Notes: generated by a model from the sequence alone, not told the origin. A stretch of DNA of 64,000 bases from Dehalococcoidia bacterium (GCA_965219085.1 OZ244720.1:1120001-1184000); one strand, 5' to 3'; numbered from the stretch's first letter, positions 25,831 through 35,822 are shown. Made by a program: numbers and translations.

Positions 25831-26238
25831 CTAGTCCAGGGCGACGATGACGGTGGTGGCGAGGCCGATGACGGCCGTGAGGAAGGTGGCGGCGGCGCCG
25901 ACGGCGAGGTAGATGCGGTTCACGACGCGGTGCTCGGTCTGCGCGATCTCGCCGCGCAGGCGCTCCTCGGTCTGCGCGAGATCGCCGCGGACGGCAGCGA
26001 TCTCGCCGCGCAGGCGCTCCTCGGTCTGCGCGAGATCGCCGCGGACGGCAGCGATCTCGCCGCGCAGGCGCTCCTCGGTGCGCTCGAGGTCGGAGCGCAA
26101 GGCGGCAAGGTCGACCTTCGTTGCGACGCGCTCACCGACGTCTTCCGCGAAGGCGGTGACGATGGCGTCGGCCTTGGGGGCCTCGAAGCCGGCCTCCTGG
26201 AGTCGTTGCGACGCGCGCCGCGTGTCGAATAGCACCAT
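25831..26238 (-). CDS. DUF1640/CCDC90-like protein, array B copy 1
   Basis: FDTRRASQRLQEAGF head, VATKVDL neck, 54-bp (18-aa) stalk repeats, tail near-identical to copy 2. Confidence 0.85.
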   Translation of the reverse strand: MVLFDTRRASQRLQEAGFEAPKADAIVTAFAEDVGERVATKVDLAALRSDLERTEERLRGEIAAVRGDLAQTEERLRGEIAAVRGDLAQTEERLRGEIAQTEHRVVNRIYLAVGAAATFLTAVIGLATTVIVALD

Positions 26239-26823: not shown

Positions 26824-27450
26824 ATGCCGTACGAGATGCCGAACCCTCCATCACACAGCCTCACACCGGACGAAGAGCGATCGCTGGTCGATCGCGCGCG
26901 CTCGGGCGACCAGGACGCCCTCGGCGCGCTCTACGACGCCTACGCGGACCGGCTGTATCGCTACTGCCTGACGCGCGTGGGCGACGAGACGGAGGCGGAG
27001 GACCTGGCCGAGGACGTCTTCCTGAAGGTGCTGGGCGCGATCGAGCGCTTCGAGTGGCGGCCCGGCGAGGACGGCCAGCGCATCCCGTTCGGGGCCTGGC
27101 TGTTCCGCATCGCCCGCAACGAGATCGCCTCGTACCGTCGTCGCGCGGCCTCGCGGCCGCAGCAGACGGAGCTGCCGGAGGTGCTGCACGACACGCGGCG
27201 CGGCCCGGCCGAGCTGGCGGAGACGAAGCTGACCATCGAGGAGGTGTTCCGGGCGGTGCGCGAGCTGCCCGACGCGCAGCGGGAGGTGATCCTGCTGCGC
27301 TTCGCCTCGGGCCTGACGGTGGCGGAGACCGCCGCCGCCCTGGGCAAGAAGGTACCGAACGTGAAGGTGTTGCAGCACAAGGGCGTCCAGCGCCTGCGCG
27401 CACTCTTCACCACCCCGCCGCCCCGCGGGGTATCCCCGCATCAAAGATGA
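26824..27450 (+). CDS. ECF sigma-70 factor (start may be 26836)
   Basis: GDQDALGALYD, AEDLAEDVFLK, AWLFRIARN, region 4 LPDAQREVILLRF...HTH. Confidence 0.95.
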   Translation: MPYEMPNPPSHSLTPDEERSLVDRARSGDQDALGALYDAYADRLYRYCLTRVGDETEAEDLAEDVFLKVLGAIERFEWRPGEDGQRIPFGAWLFRIARNEIASYRRRAASRPQQTELPEVLHDTRRGPAELAETKLTIEEVFRAVRELPDAQREVILLRFASGLTVAETAAALGKKVPNVKVLQHKGVQRLRALFTTPPPRGVSPHQR

Positions 27451-27480
27451 TCGCGGAGCGGGCGGGCGGACGGTGACGCC

Positions 27481-28686
27481 ATGACGAACATGCACGACGA
27501 ACCCTTCGACGACCTGCGCAGTGGCGATCTCAATGGCGACATGCCGGGCGAGATGCCCGGCGACGAGCTGCTGAGCGAGATCGACCTCGCCGACGCCGAG
27601 CGCTTCGCCGAGGTCATCGACCGCCTCGAAGCAGGCGGCGGGGTCGACCTCGACCCGCGCGAAGACCCGACGCTGGCCGCGCTGACCACGGTGGCCGCGC
27701 AGCTCCGCGACAACGCCCGCGACGCCACCTCGACGCCGCGCTTCGAGTCGTACCGCGCGCGGTCGCGCGACTACCTGCTGCACCGCATCGCGCGCGAGCG
27801 CGAGGTGCTGGCGGCCTCGGCGCGCCCGCAGCCTGAGCGCGAGGAGCCCTCGGGGCTGGGCGGCATCCCGTTCCTGCGCTGGAACGTGCTCTCGCCGATC
27901 GCCAGCGCGGCGGCGGCCGCGGTCGCGGTGCTCGCGTTCGTCGCGTTCACCGGCAGCGACACGCCGGCGCCGGTCGCGCCCGAGCAGGCCGCGGTCGTCG
28001 ACACCCCGGCCGTGGCGCCGGTCGCCGACGACGCGGACGAGCAGGACGCGGTCGAGCCGGTGACGCCTCAGCCCGACCCGGTGCGGGTCGCCACCCTCAT
28101 CCTCTCGAGCCGGCCGTCGAACGAAGAGATCCTCGACCGGTTCGCCGCGGCGACGAGCGTGCGCTACGCGGCCATCGCGGACGACGCCGTGGTCGCGGCA
28201 GTGGACGACACCGCCGCGGATGACGTCGTGGACGAAGCGCCGGCGGCCGAGGCCGCCCCGGCGCCCGCGACGCCGCCTGTCACGGTGGCCGTGGCGCCCC
28301 GGCCCGTGCCGGTGGCCGCGGCGACCAGCGAGGTGTTCAGCGTGTCAACGCAGCGCGCGACGCCTCGGACGCTCCCGGACCAGCTCGACTACATCGACAC
28401 GCTGCTGGGCGAGTTGACGGTGATGGTGGAAGGGCAGGAACGGGTGCCCGCGCAGCTGCTGCGCGAGATCACCGAGTCGATCGCCGCGGTGGCGTACCGC
28501 ATCGAGTCGCGCCCGGACGAGGTGACGCACGCGCAGGTGGTCGCCTACATCCACGCAGCGGCGGACGGCCGGTTCCTCCTCGCCGCGGCGGTGGCGGACG
28601 AGGCGGACGAGGCGGCGCTGAACGCCGCGCGCCGCGTGGCGCAGGACGGCGTGGTGGTGGCGGGCTGGTACTTCAAGTACCGCTAG
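27481..28686 (+). CDS. Membrane-anchored putative anti-sigma factor
   Basis: Directly downstream of ECF; N-terminal cytoplasmic part, single TM, Pro/Ala linker, helical C-domain. Confidence 0.7.
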   Translation: MTNMHDEPFDDLRSGDLNGDMPGEMPGDELLSEIDLADAERFAEVIDRLEAGGGVDLDPREDPTLAALTTVAAQLRDNARDATSTPRFESYRARSRDYLLHRIAREREVLAASARPQPEREEPSGLGGIPFLRWNVLSPIASAAAAAVAVLAFVAFTGSDTPAPVAPEQAAVVDTPAVAPVADDADEQDAVEPVTPQPDPVRVATLILSSRPSNEEILDRFAAATSVRYAAIADDAVVAAVDDTAADDVVDEAPAAEAAPAPATPPVTVAVAPRPVPVAAATSEVFSVSTQRATPRTLPDQLDYIDTLLGELTVMVEGQERVPAQLLREITESIAAVAYRIESRPDEVTHAQVVAYIHAAADGRFLLAAAVADEADEAALNAARRVAQDGVVVAGWYFKYR

Positions 28687-28740
28687 CTGTAGTGCCTACA
28701 CACCTGCGAGACACCTGATCGTAAAGGGTGGGCAGTACAG
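28687..28740. mobile_element. 54-bp inverted-repeat-bounded mini element or IS scar with CTAG duplication
   Basis: CTAG|CTGTAGTGCCTAC...GTGGGCAGTACAG|CTAG. Confidence 0.65.
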
Positions 28741-28832
28741 CTAGTCCGGCCGCGAACGCGGTCACTAAGGCCTCCATCTCCTATTCAGCAAGACGGGGGA
28801 TAACTGGAAGGTCGTCGTCGACCACAGGGGCA

Positions 28833-29198
28833 TCACTCCTCAGGCTTCTCCTGGACGCACGCGGAACCAGACCGAACGAACGTCTGTGCCGCCTCGTCGC
28901 TGATCGGGCGCCCCGTAGCCATCGCAGCGCTCCACGCCAGGTAGTCGTCGAGTGATGCGTTCTGCTCCCACCAGTCGAAGATACACGTGCACTGCTCACG
29001 GTCGGCACCCTGGGCGATGCAGCCGTCGACCATCCCGGCCTTCATCACGGCTGGCCACGGCACTACCTGATCGGTGGCCTCGACAGCGCCGCGCTCCTCG
29101 TCGCCCGAATGGTGCAGGTGCCCATAGTGGAGCCCCATCGCAAGCCCGATGAGCCCGGCGTTTATGGCGAGCAGAAGCAGGTAGTGGCGCCAGTTCAC
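28833..29198 (-). CDS. Small membrane-anchored protein with C-x9-C-x-C motif
   Basis: GTG start overlaps upstream stop (GTGA); N-terminal hydrophobic helix; GCIAQGADREQCTC. Confidence 0.7.
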   Translation of the reverse strand: MNWRHYLLLLAINAGLIGLAMGLHYGHLHHSGDEERGAVEATDQVVPWPAVMKAGMVDGCIAQGADREQCTCIFDWWEQNASLDDYLAWSAAMATGRPISDEAAQTFVRSGSACVQEKPEE

Positions 29199-29482
29199 GA
29201 GCGGAACCACTCTTTGATCGCCTCGCCCCACCGCCACCGGATGAGGATGGCCATGGTGGTCAGAACCGCGACGACGATGGCCACGCTGAACGGCCCCAGC
29301 AGATCGTGCGGTATCAGGTCGGGAGCGAGCGCGTCGCTCCCGAACATGACACCGGCGATGACGAGGCCGGTGACGGCGCCGCCCACGGCCTCCCACCACT
29401 TCACCGATCGCGGCCGATCCCTCGCGCTGGCGTAAAACAGCACGGTCAGGATCGCCAGCGACACGATCAGGCTGGTGGCCAT
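29195..29482 (-). CDS. 95-aa three-TM protein, candidate immunity protein
   Basis: Three hydrophobic segments; starts 3 bp after the Cys-rich precursor stop. Confidence 0.72.
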   Translation of the reverse strand: MATSLIVSLAILTVLFYASARDRPRSVKWWEAVGGAVTGLVIAGVMFGSDALAPDLIPHDLLGPFSVAIVVAVLTTMAILIRWRWGEAIKEWFRS

Positions 29483-30138
29483 GGGCTAGTCCTCGAAGAA
29501 CTGCACGTGGCATACCACGATGGACGTGTACGCGCAGACGAGAAAGCACGCCAAGCCCCACAGTGCGGTGAAGAGGACGACCCACCGGCAGACGTTCCAG
29601 CACGTCAGGATTCGCACCGTCTGGCAGATCTCCAGCTCGCCTCGGGCGGCGGCTCCCGAACCGGCCGCATCAGGCGGCTGCGGTGTGCCAGACCACACGC
29701 CATCGGTGACCGATACGTCATGGCCTTTCCCCTTCATCCGAAGTGTCCCTGCGAACGGGCGCAGTGGTTGGCCGGACGCATCGTACGTCGTTGCGATGGT
29801 CGAGCGGACCGTCACCGTGATGTCGGCGCCCTCCACGAAATTGGTGAGCGCCGGGTCACTGAACGAGTTGTCACCGTCCAGCACGCCACTGGCGGTAACC
29901 GACCCCTGCTTCACGACGAGGGTGTAGCCCTCGTAGTCGCCAAGGCGTTCGTTCTGCTGCTCGAACAGCGTGATCACACCGTCCCGCAGGTTGATCACGA
30001 AGCGACTGACCTCGCTGTCGGCGAACTCCCATTCATCACCCACATCGAACCTGAGTTCGTTGACCTGACCCCTTGAAACGGGACCACCGTTGATGAGAGT
30101 CCTTTGGCCCATGAAAGTGGGCAGAGGAGGACATCACG

Positions 30139-30417
30139 GTGAAACGACGCAGGCACACGCCCGAGCAGATCGTGCGTAAGCTGCGGGAGGTGGAGCGGCT
30201 GCTCGGCGAAGGGCAGACGATCGCCGAGGCGGCGAAGCAGATCGAGATCTCGGAGCAGACCTACCACCGCTGGCGCAACCAGTACGGCGCGATGAAGGCC
30301 GACGACGCCAAACGGCTGCGCGAGCTGGAGCGCGAGAACGTCCGGCTGAAGCGGATCGTCGCCGACAAGGAACTCGAGATCGACGCGCTCAAGGAGATCG
30401 CCCGGGGAAACTGGTAA
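30139..30417 (+). CDS. IS3 transposase OrfA
   Basis: KRRRHTPEQIVRKLRE HTH, RLRELERENVRLKRIVAD zipper; GGGGAAAC frameshift window. Confidence 0.95.
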   Translation: MKRRRHTPEQIVRKLREVERLLGEGQTIAEAAKQIEISEQTYHRWRNQYGAMKADDAKRLRELERENVRLKRIVADKELEIDALKEIARGNW

Positions 30418-30446
30418 GCCCGTCGCGCCGGCGCGAGGCAGTCTGC

Positions 30447-31268
30447 ATGTTGCAGGACCGCCTCGAGTTGTCGGAACGGCGGGCATGCCGGGTCACCGGC
30501 CAGCGCCGCTCCACACAGCGCCGCCTCCCGGTGCGCGGCCGCGGCGACGACGCGCTGCGCGCGGAACTCCACGCCTTCTCGCGTGGCCACCCCCGCTGGG
30601 GCTACCGCCGGGCCTGGGCGACCTTACGCGAGGAGGGCTGGGGCGTGAATCGCAAGCGGGTGCAACGGCTCTGGCGCGAGGAGGGGCTGCGCGTCCCGGT
30701 GAAACGACGCAAGCGTCAGCGTCTGGGGGACTCGGCTCAGCCCGCCAGGCGGCTGCGTGCCGAGCGGCCGAACCACGTCTGGGCGCTGGACTTCCAGTTC
30801 GACCAGACCGCCGACGGGCGGGTCCTGAAGCTGCTCAACGTCGTCGACGAGCACACGCGGGAGGCGCTGGCTATCGTGGCCGCCAGGAGCATCAACGCCG
30901 ACGCCACGGCCTCAACGCTCGAGGGGATCGTCGCCCGGCGCGGGACGGCGCCTGGGTACATCCGCTGCGACAACGGTCCAGAGCTCACGGCCAACGCGCT
31001 GCGCGACTGGTGCCGGTTCTCCGGCACGGGCAGCAGCTACATCGAGCCCGGTGCGCCGTGGGAGAACCCGTACGTGGAGTCGTTCAACGGCCGGCTGCGC
31101 GACGAGTTCCTGGCCGTCGAGCAGTTCGACAGCCTGCTCGAGGCGCGGGTGCTCGAGGACTGGCGGATCGAGTACAACACGAAGCGCCCGCATAGCAGCC
31201 TGGGCTGGCTCGCCCCGGCTGCCTACGCCGAGCGCTGGGAGGCTCAGCAACACGCTGGACTCTCATAA
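30447..31268 (+). CDS. IS3 transposase OrfB (DDE catalytic core)
   Basis: WALDFQFD, IRCDNGPE, NPYVESFNGRLRDE. Confidence 0.95.
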   Translation: MLQDRLELSERRACRVTGQRRSTQRRLPVRGRGDDALRAELHAFSRGHPRWGYRRAWATLREEGWGVNRKRVQRLWREEGLRVPVKRRKRQRLGDSAQPARRLRAERPNHVWALDFQFDQTADGRVLKLLNVVDEHTREALAIVAARSINADATASTLEGIVARRGTAPGYIRCDNGPELTANALRDWCRFSGTGSSYIEPGAPWENPYVESFNGRLRDEFLAVEQFDSLLEARVLEDWRIEYNTKRPHSSLGWLAPAAYAERWEAQQHAGLS

Positions 31269-32596
31269 GCGGTGGTCTCGCGAAGGGGGTCCGGTCATCG
31301 TTATATGTGTCCTGGCCCTGCGGGCCGATGTGGACCGTTGTGTCGCGTCCTGCGGCGAGACTGTCCAGGTCTGCATCGGTGATGGTGGCCAGGTTGGCTG
31401 GGCCGAGAATGCCAGTCACGCTGTAGGTGTTGGTGCCATCAGTCTGCGTGATGCGGATCTCGTAGCCCGAGCGTGGGTGGTCGTGGCCAGTTCCGTGTCC
31501 TCGTCGACCTCGACGAGGTTGGCGCCCGGAACGATGCGTATAAGTTCGACCGGCAGACTCTCCCCGTCGCGCGTGATGTGCCATGGGGAGTTGGGGCGCG
31601 CTTCGATGGTGGTGTGCACCACGCCGTGGACGTTGCCCAGCCCAGACCTCACGGAGCCGGATGGGACGACAACGTTGTGTGTGGTCTGCTCGACACCACT
31701 CCCATCGATCGTGCGCGACTGATTGATTGGTTCCCGGACCTCGGTCGCATCGACATGGGTTGCCACCAGGACCTTCTTGCTGGTGGCGTCCACCATCGCC
31801 TGCATGTAGTACCCGTCGGCGCGGTTGCCCTGGCTGTCCACGTAGGACAGCACGAGGCCGACGAAGCGCTTACCGTCCCGCTCACCGCCGAGGAACACGC
31901 CTACGGTGTCCCCGATGAAGCCACTTTCGTGCGCTTCCAGGTTGCTACTGCGCTGATGCCGAACACCGTCCGCAACCGCAGCCCTGTGTGCCTCTGCGTA
32001 CTCGGACGAGGCGAGCAGGAGCGTGTAGGCAGCCTGTGCCTCAAGCGCCGTCAGCGGGCTCGGCTCGCTCTCAGTCGCGGTCGCGGTCTTGGCGCTGGCA
32101 GTCGCGGTCTTGGCGCCCAGCACGCCGGCCAGGGGCAGGACGGCTGCGGCGCGCGCAGCCTTGAATAGGAAGCGGCGGCGCGACGCGTCGAACTTGGTGT
32201 CCGACATCGCGTTACGTGCCAGTACGGCGATGCGGTAGGCACGCCGCATTCCGACGAGCTTTACGAGGTCGATGCCGACCCTGTACCCGGTGGTCGTGCG
32301 AGCGGAGTCACCATCGAGGTGGAGCAGCGTCGACTCAAACTTCCCGACGTACCCCTTGTAACGCTCGTCGTGCAGGCTGCCGATTTCGAGGATGGAGCCC
32401 TTGGTCAGTCCCTCGTCCTCGATTCGCTTGCCGAACTCCGAGCATGGAGCGCATAAGGCGTCCAGTAGCGGGATTGCTTGCTTCTCAATCCCTCCCTTTC
32501 GCTGCGGGAAGCAGGCGATCACATACGACATACATGGTTGCTGGCCATTTGTAAGCAGGCTAATGAGAGGGGTGTTGTTGTTCAGCAGCCTGTTAG

Positions 32597-33772
32597 GGAA
32601 GGTCTGAACAGGTGGCGTATCGGGCGCGGTGCGGGCCGATCGGCGTCCCGAGCCGCGCTGCGGGGGCCGATGCCGCGGTTCAGGGGGCGATCCCGCCCCG
32701 ATTCCGCTTCGGGATCGCCTGCGGGAGCGATTCCGGACGCAGCGCTCCCGCGATCAGGCGAGTTGAGGCTCGGCTCGCAACAGGTTCGTGAAGCCGAGCA
32801 GCAGCATGAGACGCTGGCGGTTCTTCTCAAGACCCCGGTAGCGGACCTGCGCGTACCCGAAGTGCCGCTTCACGTAGAGAAACGGATGCTCAGCCTTGGC
32901 GCGCACCGAGGCCTTGCGCCGCTCCGCCTGCGCCTCCTCGCCCCCCGGCGCCAGCTGCCGCCTGAGACCCGGACGCAGCGCCACCTGCCAGCTCACCTCC
33001 GACCCCGCGTGCTCCGGGCGCTTCTCCACTCCCTGGTAGCCGGCGTCGCCCCACGCCTCCGTCTCGCCCCCGTGCAAGAGGCGATGCGCCTCGGTCACGT
33101 CGGAGACGTTCGCCGCCGTCGTGCTCACGCTGTGGACCAGCCCCGTCCGCGCATCCGTGCCGGTGTGCAGCTTCATCCCGAAGTACCACTGCCGGCCCTT
33201 GCTGGTCTGGTGCATCTCGGGGTCGCGCGCACGCTCGCGGTTCTTCGTCGATGACGGCGCGCTGATGATCGTGGAGTCCACGATCGTGCCCTCGCGCACC
33301 TGCAGACCCTGCCGTGCCAGGTGCGCGTTGATCGTCGCGAACAGCGCCGTTCCCAGCTGATGGCGCTCCAGCAGGTGGCGGAAGTTGAGGATCGTCGTCT
33401 CATCGGGAATCGGCTCGGAGAGGCTGAGACCGGCGAACTCGAGCATCGAGCGGGAGTCGTAGAGTTCCTGCTCCATGCCGGGGTCGCTGAGGTTGAACCA
33501 GAGCTGCAGGCAGTGGATGCGCAGCATCACGCGCAGCGCGTAGGGGCGGCGTCCGCGGCCGCGCTTCGGGTAGACGGGCGCGATGCGCTGCTCCAGCTCA
33601 GCCCAGGGGACGAGCCCGTCCATGCGCTCGAGGAACGCCTGCCGCCTCGTCTTGACCTTCTTGTGCTCGTACTCGACGCTGCCGAACGAACGCTGCTGCA
33701 TGGGCCGCCCCTCTCCGGGTCGCCCCATGATCGCATCTGCTCACCCGCTCAGGCGAGTTGTTCAGACCATCC
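32597..33772 (-). mobile_element. IS5 family element
   Basis: IRs GGAAGGTCTGAACA / TGTTCAGACCATCC; TTAG duplicated at 32593 and 33773. Confidence 0.96.
32754..33701 (-). CDS. IS5 family transposase
   Basis: IPDETTILNFRHLL, GTIVDSTII, WYFGMKLH, WGDAGYQG, RAKAEHPF. Confidence 0.96.
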   Translation of the reverse strand: MQQRSFGSVEYEHKKVKTRRQAFLERMDGLVPWAELEQRIAPVYPKRGRGRRPYALRVMLRIHCLQLWFNLSDPGMEQELYDSRSMLEFAGLSLSEPIPDETTILNFRHLLERHQLGTALFATINAHLARQGLQVREGTIVDSTIISAPSSTKNRERARDPEMHQTSKGRQWYFGMKLHTGTDARTGLVHSVSTTAANVSDVTEAHRLLHGGETEAWGDAGYQGVEKRPEHAGSEVSWQVALRPGLRRQLAPGGEEAQAERRKASVRAKAEHPFLYVKRHFGYAQVRYRGLEKNRQRLMLLLGFTNLLRAEPQLA

Positions 33773-33799
33773 TTAGAGCGATGACTGGATCACTTCATG

Positions 33800-34640: not shown

Positions 34641-35822
34641 GTGAGTACCGTGACCAGCGCCACACTCCGCCTCGCTCGCGGCGCGCTCGCCGACCCCCTG
34701 CACGCTCGCGGTACGCTCGCAGGCCTCGCGCTCGTGGCCGCCGTCCTCGTGGCCTCATGCGGCGCCGGCGACGACGTGGGCGTCGCGCCCGACGGCTCCG
34801 TCACCCCGCAACGCGAACTGACGGGGCTGACCGCCTGGCTCAACTCGGAGCCCCTCACGATCGCCGCGGAGCTCGAGCAGGGCCGCGTCGTGCTCGTCGA
34901 CTTCTGGACCTACACCTGCATCAACTGCATCCGCACGCTGCCTTACCTGCGCGAGTGGCACGAGAAGTACGCCGGCAGCGGCCTCGTCATCGTCGGCGTG
35001 CACGCCCCGGAGTTCGACTTCGAGCACGAGGCAGACAACGTGCTGGCGGCGATGGACCGCCTCGGCGTCGCATGGCCGGTGGCGCAGGACAACGACTTCC
35101 GCACGTGGCGCGCGTTCGAGAACCGCTTCTGGCCCGCCAAGTACCTGTTCGGCGTCGACGGCCGCATCCGCTACTCGCACTTCGGGGAGGGCGACTACCT
35201 CGAGACCGAGGAGGAGATCCGCGCCGCGCTCACCGAGGCCGGTCACGACGTGAGCGCGATCCAGCTCGGCAGCGCCGCACCCGCCCGGGACCCCGACGCC
35301 GGCGCGCAGACCCGCGAACTCTACGGCGGCTACGAGCGCAACTACAGCCCTCGCGGCCTCTACGCCGCGCAGGACGAGTATTACGCCGCCCCGGACCTCG
35401 AGCTTGAGTACGAGGACATCGACACCACCAGGGGCGAACGCGACCACAATCGCTGGTACCTGCAGGGGCTGTGGCGCAACGAGCGCGAGGCGATCGTCCA
35501 CGCGCGCACGACGTCGAACTTCGACGACTACTTCGCGCTCCGCTTCGTCTCGCGCAGCGTGAACGTCGTGCTCAACCCGCCGCCGGGTGAGCCGTTCACC
35601 GTGGTGATCGAGCTCGATGGCCGCGCACTCAACCGCGAGGAGGCGGGCGCGGACATCACGTACGACGAGGCGGGCCGCAGCATCATCGTTGTGACCGAGC
35701 CGCGCGCGTATGCGATCGTGGAACTGCCCGAGTGGGGCGACCACGAGCTCAAGCTGCGCTCCAACTCAGACCACTTCGCGATCTTCGCTCTCACCTTCGG
35801 CAACTACCTGGAGGGCGCATGA
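34641..35822 (+). CDS. DipZ-like thioredoxin lipoprotein (no DsbD/CcdA domain)
   Basis: Lipobox VASC; LVDFWTYTCINC, GVHAPEF, WPAKY, HFGEG. Confidence 0.9.
   Translation: MSTVTSATLRLARGALADPLHARGTLAGLALVAAVLVASCGAGDDVGVAPDGSVTPQRELTGLTAWLNSEPLTIAAELEQGRVVLVDFWTYTCINCIRTLPYLREWHEKYAGSGLVIVGVHAPEFDFEHEADNVLAAMDRLGVAWPVAQDNDFRTWRAFENRFWPAKYLFGVDGRIRYSHFGEGDYLETEEEIRAALTEAGHDVSAIQLGSAAPARDPDAGAQTRELYGGYERNYSPRGLYAAQDEYYAAPDLELEYEDIDTTRGERDHNRWYLQGLWRNEREAIVHARTTSNFDDYFALRFVSRSVNVVLNPPPGEPFTVVIELDGRALNREEAGADITYDEAGRSIIVVTEPRAYAIVELPEWGDHELKLRSNSDHFAIFALTFGNYLEGA

Follow-up and report, generated by a model that had tools for sequence, protein, structure and literature searches.

A decayed three-gene cassette in a Dehalococcoidia bacterium that resembles a polymorphic, Tat-exported bacteriocin system

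In the genome of a Dehalococcoidia bacterium (GCA_965219085.1), a stretch of 64,000 nucleotides (OZ244720.1:1120001-1184000; hereafter the window) carries a large broken gene, which we call gene 1, followed by two small intact genes, genes 2 and 3. What did gene 1 encode, and what are the genes that it left behind? A preliminary description of the sequence read this locus as a bacteriocin-like operon, whose large protein ended in a toxic peptide with six cysteines and whose downstream membrane gene conferred immunity. We think that the locus is probably a decayed three-gene conflict cassette, in which gene 1 encoded a polymorphic bacteriocin-like precursor for export by the twin-arginine translocation (Tat) system and separate genes conferred immunity. 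The comparative predictions of the preliminary description that we checked were borne out, but the co-variation of the peptide with the membrane gene amounts to two matched pairs among seven loci.

Coordinates below are positions in the window, which is about 70% G+C and comes from a 3.3 Mb genome in a single contig. The minus strand carries the whole cassette, and an insertion sequence (IS) of the IS3 family that splits gene 1 is on the plus strand. The parts of the cassette and its lesions are:

32594-33776, minus strand: IS5-like element, with a transposase open reading frame (ORF) at 32754-33728 (DDE_Tnp_1 and DUF772)
31416-32531, minus strand: fragment A of gene 1, 371 codons to a premature stop, with the N-terminal module, the Tat-type signal, domain 1 and part of domain 2
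32202-32480, minus strand: N-terminal module (residues 18-110) with a thioredoxin fold according to alignment, AlphaFold2 and Foldseek, tentatively DCC1-like; CxxC at 32442-32453
32112-32183, minus strand: internal Tat-type signal, with SRRRFL at 32166-32183 and a hydrophobic region (h-region) at 32112-32165, then A-x-A sites
31467-31474, minus strand: site of a 4-nt deletion that shifts the frame, from frame comparison and contigs of public runs
31298-31470, minus strand: middle piece of gene 1 in the shifted frame (GYEIRITQTDG...DTYN), from the ORF and alignment to the relatives P0002 and P0004
30061-31297, plus strand: IS3-family element, with orfA at 30139-30417 and orfB at 30447-31268 (Pfam HTH_Tnp_1 and rve/rve_3)
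29486-30060, minus strand: fragment B of gene 1, with domain 3, the junction motif and the cysteine tail; stop codon at 29486-29488
29681-29752, minus strand: conserved junction motif AGTLRMKGKGHDVSVTDGVWSGTP, with G, R, G, D, G, W, G and T fully or almost invariant in two alignments
29489-29641, minus strand: hypervariable hydrophobic tail with six cysteines (spacing 7-3-13-3-7), a predicted helical hairpin
29195-29482, minus strand: gene 2, a small membrane protein of 95 amino acids and an immunity candidate, whose membrane part varies and whose end, RWRWGEAI(K/D)(E/R)WF, is conserved
28833-29198, minus strand: gene 3, a protein of 121 amino acids with an N-terminal membrane helix, an LHYGHLHH motif and a predicted extracytoplasmic domain with four cysteines (C-x9-CxC...C)

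The elements that had been picked out from the sequence alone (the LLDALCAPC domain, SRRRFL, the six-cysteine tail and the downstream genes) are all present on the minus strand. Gene 1 had about 585 codons, and over fragment A its product is 89% identical to that of an intact relative, P0002. Because P0002 has 585 amino acids, the earlier estimate of an ORF of about 600 amino acids, obtained by removing the IS3 element and correcting one frameshift, was correct. In fragment A, the CxxC motif within LLDALCAPC corresponds to residues 27-30, and SRRRFL occupies residues 117-122 and is followed by AARAAAVLPLAGVLGA. Fragment B ends in CQTVRILTCWNVCRWVVLFTALWGLACFLVCAYTSIVVC.

Gene 1 has three lesions: the IS3-family insertion, the 4-nt deletion, and the IS5-like element, which lies 63 bp upstream of the gene's first ATG. 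The element inside gene 1 has the features of the IS3 family, namely orfA and orfB, terminal inverted repeats (TG...CA), a 4-bp target duplication (ACGA at 30057-30060 and at 31298-31301), seven more full-length copies in the genome (96-97% identity, with query positions 1-1237 all covered) besides fragments, and an empty site. The empty site is seen in contigs of three public sequencing runs from three different studies (X5, X7 and X9), which join 30056 to 31298. In the contigs of X5 and X7, the letters GAGG are present behind 31470. In run X1, in which all sampled words are present, the ends of the IS are seen and the four extra letters are absent. Given the contigs without the IS or with GAGG, and the agreement of X1 with the window, both the insertion and the deletion are real and lineage-specific. 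We considered that the frameshift might be a homopolymer error of long reads, but this can be ruled out because the indel has four nucleotides and the contigs of X1 match the window. At the deletion site, the relatives P0003 and P0002 are uninterrupted (...TTTHALSGYEIR...). P0003, which comes from another assembly and is 96% identical, reads into the same end of the IS without the frameshift, so the insertion seems to be the older of these two lesions.

Gene 1 is thus dead in this genome and genes 2 and 3 are intact, as had been proposed. A search of the same genome with both fragments found no paralog of gene 1. A scan of 28600-32800 for promoters and terminators gave 0 sites of either kind, and no RNA datasets are listed among the public runs with the locus. 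The source genome is rich in insertion sequences, with copies of both the IS3-family and the IS5-like elements; for the latter we found at least 13 further near-full copies (94-98% identity, query positions 95-1277 of window:32500-34100). In run X5, 10 letters are missing at 31329 from the IS-free contig, whose depth is only 3.7; this may be an independent lesion of gene 1 in another population, or an error.

What kind of protein was this? Fragment A matches 14 proteins, 8 of which are full-length (382-585 amino acids). Their alignment shows an N-terminal module with the motif LLLD-x-x-C-x-x-CS, then FDxSRRSFL(I/L)(K/R)AAGAAAVLP, domain 1, one or two optional beta domains, a junction (consensus AGTLRxKGxGVDxxxTNGVWSGTP, rich in invariant positions), and a hydrophobic, cysteine-rich tail. 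Between the window and P0002, identity is 92% in the N-terminal module, 95% in domain 1, 93% in domain 3, 100% in the junction, and 41% in the tail. The mean pairwise identities across the family are 66%, 51%, 71%, 64% and 27% for the same parts, and 18.5% for the tail outside its cysteines. The break in identity is sharp and falls exactly at the junction motif. Two predictions of the preliminary description thus hold: intact homologs exist that keep a cysteine-rich tail, and the C-termini are variable.

Domain 1 is modeled with weak likeness to protease propeptide, cystatin and PepSY folds (Z of 6.8 to 4k90_B and of 5.2 to YpmB and YpeB). When the fragments, genes 2 and 3, and intact relatives were scanned against Pfam and NCBIfam, no family reached its cut-off, apart from TIGR01409 and CHAP in a few relatives, which are described below. 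Foldseek found no match to the full-length model in the PDB at E ≤ 0.001; an Atlas search with P0002 returned only unnamed clusters, at 0.91; and among metagenome contigs scanned with alignment A2 there were 72 pattern matches, none of which encodes a relative. One relative, P0175, has a precomputed match to Pfam PF27906.1.

In the model of P0002 the tail forms two helices (residues 531-555 and 557-578), with predicted local distance difference test (pLDDT) scores of 65-80, and in the window its Kyte-Doolittle hydrophobicity is 2.11. Of 159 relatives, 18 have a ladder of the form C-x7-C-x2-4-C-x11-14-C-x3-C-x7-C in the tail, as compared to a mean of 0.30 and a maximum of 3 in 200 shuffles, so the ladder is not due to chance. 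One relative (P0004) lacks the third and the fourth cysteines together. Because the ladder is symmetric and this inner pair was lost jointly, a nested pairing of disulfides would fit.

More broadly, the N-terminal module defines a family, which was collected with a profile of the 8 full-length proteins against 1.84 billion sequences (E ≤ 1e-3; representative clusters at 50% identity). The family comprises 404 representative clusters, most of about 350 amino acids, which share only the first ~130 positions. The C-terminal cargo was counted in 150 listed representatives of the 404; a protein was taken as full-length if it had the N-terminal CxxC, the arginine pair and at least 280 amino acids, and 54 partial rows were left out. 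Among the 96 full-length representatives, 81 have at least six cysteines in the last 60 amino acids and 13 have two or fewer. Cysteine makes up 14.5% of these last 60 residues and 0.8% of the middle part. Of the 81 cysteine-rich proteins, 66 have an even number of cysteines behind the signal (binomial p = 4e-9). Their tails are hydrophobic in 39 cases (grand average of hydropathy, GRAVY, ≥ 0.8) and are not in 23 (< 0.3), and the number and pattern of tail cysteines across relatives ranges from 4 to 16. In 2 of 25 scanned relatives (P0059 and P0141), a CHAP cell-wall hydrolase domain replaces the cysteine-rich tail. We also considered a ribosomally synthesized peptide with a dedicated modifying enzyme and rejected it, as there is no large enzyme gene beside the cassette in the loci that we read (by eye only).

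A small membrane gene lies directly downstream of gene 1 in all 7 readable loci of the genus, as predicted. The product of gene 2, which had been described as having three transmembrane segments, is indeed a small membrane protein, but the third hydrophobic segment is weaker than the two clear ones. Similarly, gene 3 does encode the C-x9-CxC motif noted earlier, but its product is membrane-anchored, and its GTG start (29198) overlaps the stop of gene 2. Gene 3 is conserved among relatives; it has no match in Pfam or NCBIfam, and a search of the Atlas returned nothing at ≥ 0.9. In one relative of gene 3 (P0179, 207 amino acids), the four-cysteine domain occurs twice in tandem behind one membrane helix.

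Two pairs of loci have matched types of tail and gene 2. In the genomes G017 and G012, the tails are identical at 22 of 24 positions and the gene 2 proteins at 51 of 54; for L014 and G016 these values are 11 of 23 and 69 of 93. G004, G001 and G007 have genes 2 and 3 but lack gene 1, and G003 has gene 3 alone. A paralogous pair is present elsewhere in L062, L063 and L064 (from G015, contig 26 of G013, and G001, respectively), also without gene 1; it consists of a membrane protein of 75 amino acids and then a gene-3-like protein of 132 amino acids (35% identity).

The cassette is patchily distributed. In a family-level sample of 99 genomes (19 of the window's genus, including this one, and 80 of other genera), gene 1 was found in 7 of the 19 and in none of the 80, and all 7 copies are broken or are remnants:

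G000 (this genome): two IS elements and a deletion
G013: split over three reading frames
G009: split
G017: stop inside the N-terminal module
G012 and G016: internal deletions that join the N-terminal module to the end of the tail; gene 2 intact
G011: tail remnant

Across the phylum, 12 of 401 genomes match the profile of the N-terminal module. In 8 distant loci of the phylum, a small membrane gene is downstream in 5, and genes for an ATP-binding cassette (ABC) ATPase and a permease are downstream in 1. Two loci contain orphan tail fragments (L040, 2889-3530, and L039, 3088-3665), which end in ...CCW(N/Q)DPPWGP and are each followed by another small membrane gene, so that they resemble arrays of displaced toxin and immunity modules. 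ORFs that look like LuxR-type regulators lie upstream in the same two loci (judged by eye).

The N-terminal module of gene 1 had been described as a domain resembling those of thiol redox proteins. We found that it is a genuine CxxC module with a thioredoxin fold, as judged from alignment, AlphaFold2 and Foldseek. C27, C30 and G94 are invariant in an alignment of 118 sequences. With this alignment, AlphaFold2 gave a pLDDT of about 90 for residues 20-110, with a strand at residues 18-23, the CxxC at 27-30, and a helix at 28-39; the model has a thioredoxin-like fold in which the CxxC starts helix 1. Among the top Foldseek rows listed for the module, nearly all are thioredoxins or proteins with thioredoxin domains (E of about 2e-3, TM-scores of 0.3-0.5). 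VIA-align gave weak matches, with Z of at most 4.9.

Three lines point weakly to a relation between this module and the DCC1-like family (PF04134; COG3011, YuxK). Five relatives match PF04134 in one register (model positions 1 to about 85, E from 1e-4 to 0.17), but none reaches the gathering cut-off (the best relative scores 23.8 bits against 27.8), and the module from the window gives no match. By hhalign, the family alignment matches 8 true DCC domains of the phylum with E = 6e-5 and a probability of 65%, over 40 columns only. And among 29 relatives, 4 are annotated by the Joint Genome Institute as "predicted DCC family thiol-disulfide oxidoreductase YuxK". Searching the genome itself with PF04134 gave no match. 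In both families a strand is followed by a CxxC at the start of helix 1 within a thioredoxin-like fold. The C-terminal helices of DCC domains, however, do not align, and here the module is joined to a Tat signal and a secreted cargo that follow it.

The Tat-type signal is itself in an unusual place. The segment in the window (SRRRFLFKAARAAAVLPLAGVLGAKTATASA) has an S/T-R-R-x-F-L-K motif, a moderately hydrophobic h-region (its highest 19-residue Kyte-Doolittle value is 1.54, versus 2.11 in the tail), and an A-x-A site. R118 and R119 are both conserved, being present in ≥ 90% of the 118 sequences, and 2 of 27 proteins scanned (P0039 and P0147) reach the cut-off of TIGR01409. The genome also encodes TatC (192 bits) and TatA (63 bits). 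In the window the motif begins at residue 117, and in most relatives at about residue 105, with conserved spacing; it is thus not at the N-terminus of the protein. We considered an ordinary N-terminal Tat signal, with translation starting at Met109, and rejected it: this methionine is absent from most relatives, the N-terminal module is in frame, and the spacing is fixed in 118 sequences. Because the internal start is not conserved, a folded redox module followed by a Tat signal is a feature of the family. Our literature searches turned up neither a report of a Tat signal preceded by a thioredoxin-like or DCC domain nor any account of the family of gene 1. Just past the h-region (32085-32130, minus strand) there is a short variable repeat, which reads AKTATASAKTATATES in the window, AKTATATES in P0002, and AKTATAKTATATES in P0006; the repeat lies at the presumed signal-peptidase site. 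Run X7 has small indels nearby, at 32088 and 32095.

Internal twin-arginine motifs are known from the three-helix Rieske proteins of actinobacteria, and there are tail-anchored Tat substrates, whose hydrophobic C-terminal end the Tat system handles. In these cases the motif comes after membrane helices; in the family of gene 1 it comes after a soluble folded domain of about 100 amino acids. The thioredoxin-fold module in front of the signal appears to be what is new as compared to the known systems.

A close parallel in layout is with halocin C8 of haloarchaea, to which the preliminary description had likened the locus. Homologs of halocin C8 in bacteria are reportedly treated by Makarova and colleagues (2019). 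According to a preprint, the precursor ProC8 has a Tat-type signal, a pro-region, and a hydrophobic, cysteine-rich C-terminal peptide, and protection is encoded at the locus (bioRxiv 10.64898/2026.07.27.741052). Gene 1 shares with it a Tat-type signal, a long pro-region, a hydrophobic, cysteine-rich C-terminal peptide with an even number of cysteines, and protection (here a candidate only) that is encoded at the locus. The differences are that the Tat motif is internal here, behind a thioredoxin-fold domain; that the host is a bacterium of the Chloroflexota; and that protection is provided by the N-terminal part of the precursor in the halocin system, while the candidates for immunity here are separate membrane genes.

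The analogy is one of layout and does not extend to membership. The tail from the window does not match TIGR04449 (halocin_C8_dom) or NF040679 even at E ≤ 10. In the wider family, the best scores are 11.7 bits against a cut-off of 24 for TIGR04449 (P0031) and 19.2 against 200 for NF040679 (P0087), although NF040679 matches the tails of three distant relatives faintly (P0087, E = 7e-4; P0031, E = 0.0098; P0119, E = 0.79). PF22862 (Hac8_like_N) was found neither in the fragments from the window (E ≤ 0.01) nor in P0002, P0004, P0008 or P0011 (E ≤ 1). We therefore rejected the idea that the tail belongs to the halocin C8 family; by analogy, the cassette may work like halocin C8 from outside that family.

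Polymorphic toxin systems, such as CdiA-CT/CdiI and Rhs, combine a conserved N-terminal part, a junction motif and a variable C-terminal module with a cognate downstream gene and with orphan modules. The family of gene 1 likewise has a conserved N-terminal part and junction with an abruptly hypervariable C-terminal module, a small gene directly downstream, orphan C-terminal fragments with their own downstream genes, and immunity-like genes without a toxin gene. It differs in its apparent use of Tat for export, in place of type V, VI or VII secretion; in its module, which is a putative cysteine-stapled peptide of 45-60 amino acids or a CHAP domain rather than a nuclease or deaminase; and in its second conserved gene, gene 3. 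The predicted shape of the tail also recalls the alpha-hairpinins of plants, in which a helix-loop-helix is stabilized by cysteines (CxxxC...CxxxC). The mirrored spacing, which implies nested disulfides, is common to both, but the tail here has three pairs of cysteines instead of two, is strongly hydrophobic and bacterial, and lies at the end of a precursor of 380-585 amino acids.

Several observations weigh against a toxin with cognate immunity. Overall, tail and gene 2 co-vary weakly (Spearman 0.43, p = 0.052, for the 21 pairings of the 7 loci, with kinship not controlled); the tails of G013 and L014 are alike and their gene 2 proteins are not; and the two matched pairs may simply be close kin. 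Gene 3 is conserved rather than variable, which is atypical for a cognate immunity protein, and 2 of the 8 distant loci have no membrane gene downstream. That every copy is broken in the species-representative genomes would also fit a gene that is simply dispensable. As to export, the motif from the window matches TIGR02811 below the cut-off (E = 0.0013), and we found no precedent for a Tat signal at residue 117 behind a folded domain. The AlphaFold2 model of P0002 is poor overall (mean pLDDT 58.8), being confident for residues 140-245. Finally, the tail could be an anchor, given its hydrophobicity and the similarity of its model to ordinary transmembrane hairpins.

In an unlikely alternative, gene 1 encodes a surface-exposed envelope protein, such as an adhesin or a protein for cell-cell recognition, that is held in the membrane of its own cell by a signal-anchor and the cysteine hairpin, with gene 2 as a co-evolving membrane partner and no toxin. 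The tail is strongly hydrophobic, and transmembrane hairpins from MscS, HtrII and ATPase c subunits can be aligned with its model (Z of about 6); the beta modules come and go between relatives, as they do in surface proteins; and variable surface proteins also decay and vary fast. But 23 of the 81 cysteine-rich tails are not hydrophobic and 2 of 25 scanned relatives have CHAP instead, which argues for a cargo in the C-terminal position and against an anchor. The orphan tail fragments of L039 and L040, each with a membrane gene of its own, are also hard to reconcile with an anchor, as is a break in identity exactly at the junction motif, and genes 2 and 3 are kept where gene 1 is gone, although the partner of an absent anchor would be useless.

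The cysteines could instead be catalytic. In a transmembrane thiol-disulfide relay like DsbD or CcdA, the CxxC domain, which is invariant in the family and apparently cytoplasmic, would pass reducing equivalents through the hairpin, whose cysteine pairs are spaced along two antiparallel hydrophobic helices, to the extracytoplasmic four-cysteine domain of gene 3. We consider this very improbable, as a catalytic relay should be conserved and the tail is the least conserved part of the protein. The cysteines also vary in number and pattern, many tails are soluble, P0004 does without the inner pair, the extracytoplasmic body is almost free of cysteine, and the distribution is patchy, with decaying copies. 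Nor does it seem at all likely that gene 1 encodes the precursor of a secreted, non-toxic peptide (a signal, a pheromone, or a coat protein like hydrophobins or chaplins), with genes 2 and 3 having roles in sensing or handling it. The architecture of the precursor and the disulfide-compatible tails would be the same as for a toxin, and the regulator-like ORFs upstream of some distant loci, recognized by eye, would suit a signal. However, it is conflict systems that typically combine hypervariability with matched membrane genes downstream and with orphan modules, a CHAP hydrolase is an alternative cargo, and L033 and L045 have genes for ABC-2-type transporters downstream (typed by eye), as in loci for bacteriocin immunity or export. 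A toxin with cognate protection fits better than an anchor or an enzyme because of the sharp junction, the interchangeable cysteine-rich or lytic cargo, the downstream membrane genes that are found both matched and orphaned, and the patchy, decaying distribution with loci that keep only the shield.

How would such a toxin work? The precursor of about 585 amino acids would consist of a cytoplasmic thioredoxin-fold CxxC module, an internal twin-arginine signal, a modular beta-rich pro-region whose first domain resembles cystatins or PepSY propeptides, and, behind the ...GVWSGTP junction, a hypervariable hairpin stapled by three nested disulfides. The signal would carry the C-terminal part across the membrane via Tat while the N-terminal module remained in the cytoplasm. 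We infer that the module may act on the cysteines of the cargo before export. Once outside, the hairpin, either released or still attached, would insert into the membranes of neighboring cells and damage them. The variable, tail-matched product of gene 2 and the conserved, membrane-anchored four-cysteine product of gene 3 would protect the producer, and non-producers would keep both.

More speculatively, the family might form an undescribed class of Tat-exported, polymorphic, cysteine-rich bacteriocin precursors. In this scheme, the CxxC domain in the n-region of the signal would form or proof-read the disulfides, or hold the cysteines, in cis; the peptide would then pass the folding check of Tat; and the domain would stay behind with the cleaved signal. 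The tail would be one of several interchangeable warheads, along with knottin-like soluble peptides and CHAP domains as alternatives to hydrophobic hairpins. We regard this as a tentative proposal that is less likely than not.

If the toxin reading is right, then a large family (the 404 representative clusters, for which there is no Pfam or NCBIfam model) encodes disulfide-stapled membrane peptides, each with a gene for protection. Chloroflexota and other poorly cultured bacteria would then offer a new source of candidate antimicrobials with a narrow spectrum. The architecture is also of interest for how cysteine-rich proteins satisfy the folding requirement of Tat, a question that the fused redox domain would make testable through mutation of the CxxC. 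In this genome, the weapon would have been lost and the shield kept.

We also noticed three features in the surroundings of the cassette:

26824-28686, plus strand: a sigma factor of the extracytoplasmic function type (Sigma70_r2/r4), then a 401-codon ORF rich in alanine and proline that belongs to no family; convergent with the cassette
34641-35822, plus strand: a 393-codon ORF about 2 kb upstream of the cassette, with a hydrophobic stretch near its N-terminus and the motif WTYTCINC (CxxC)
25831-26238, minus strand: a 135-codon ORF with the tandem repeat EERLRGEIAAVRGDLAQT (about 3 copies) and a hydrophobic C-terminal end

The neighborhood with the sigma factor and the alanine- and proline-rich ORF is peculiar to this locus, in that the cassettes of other genomes do not have it in common.

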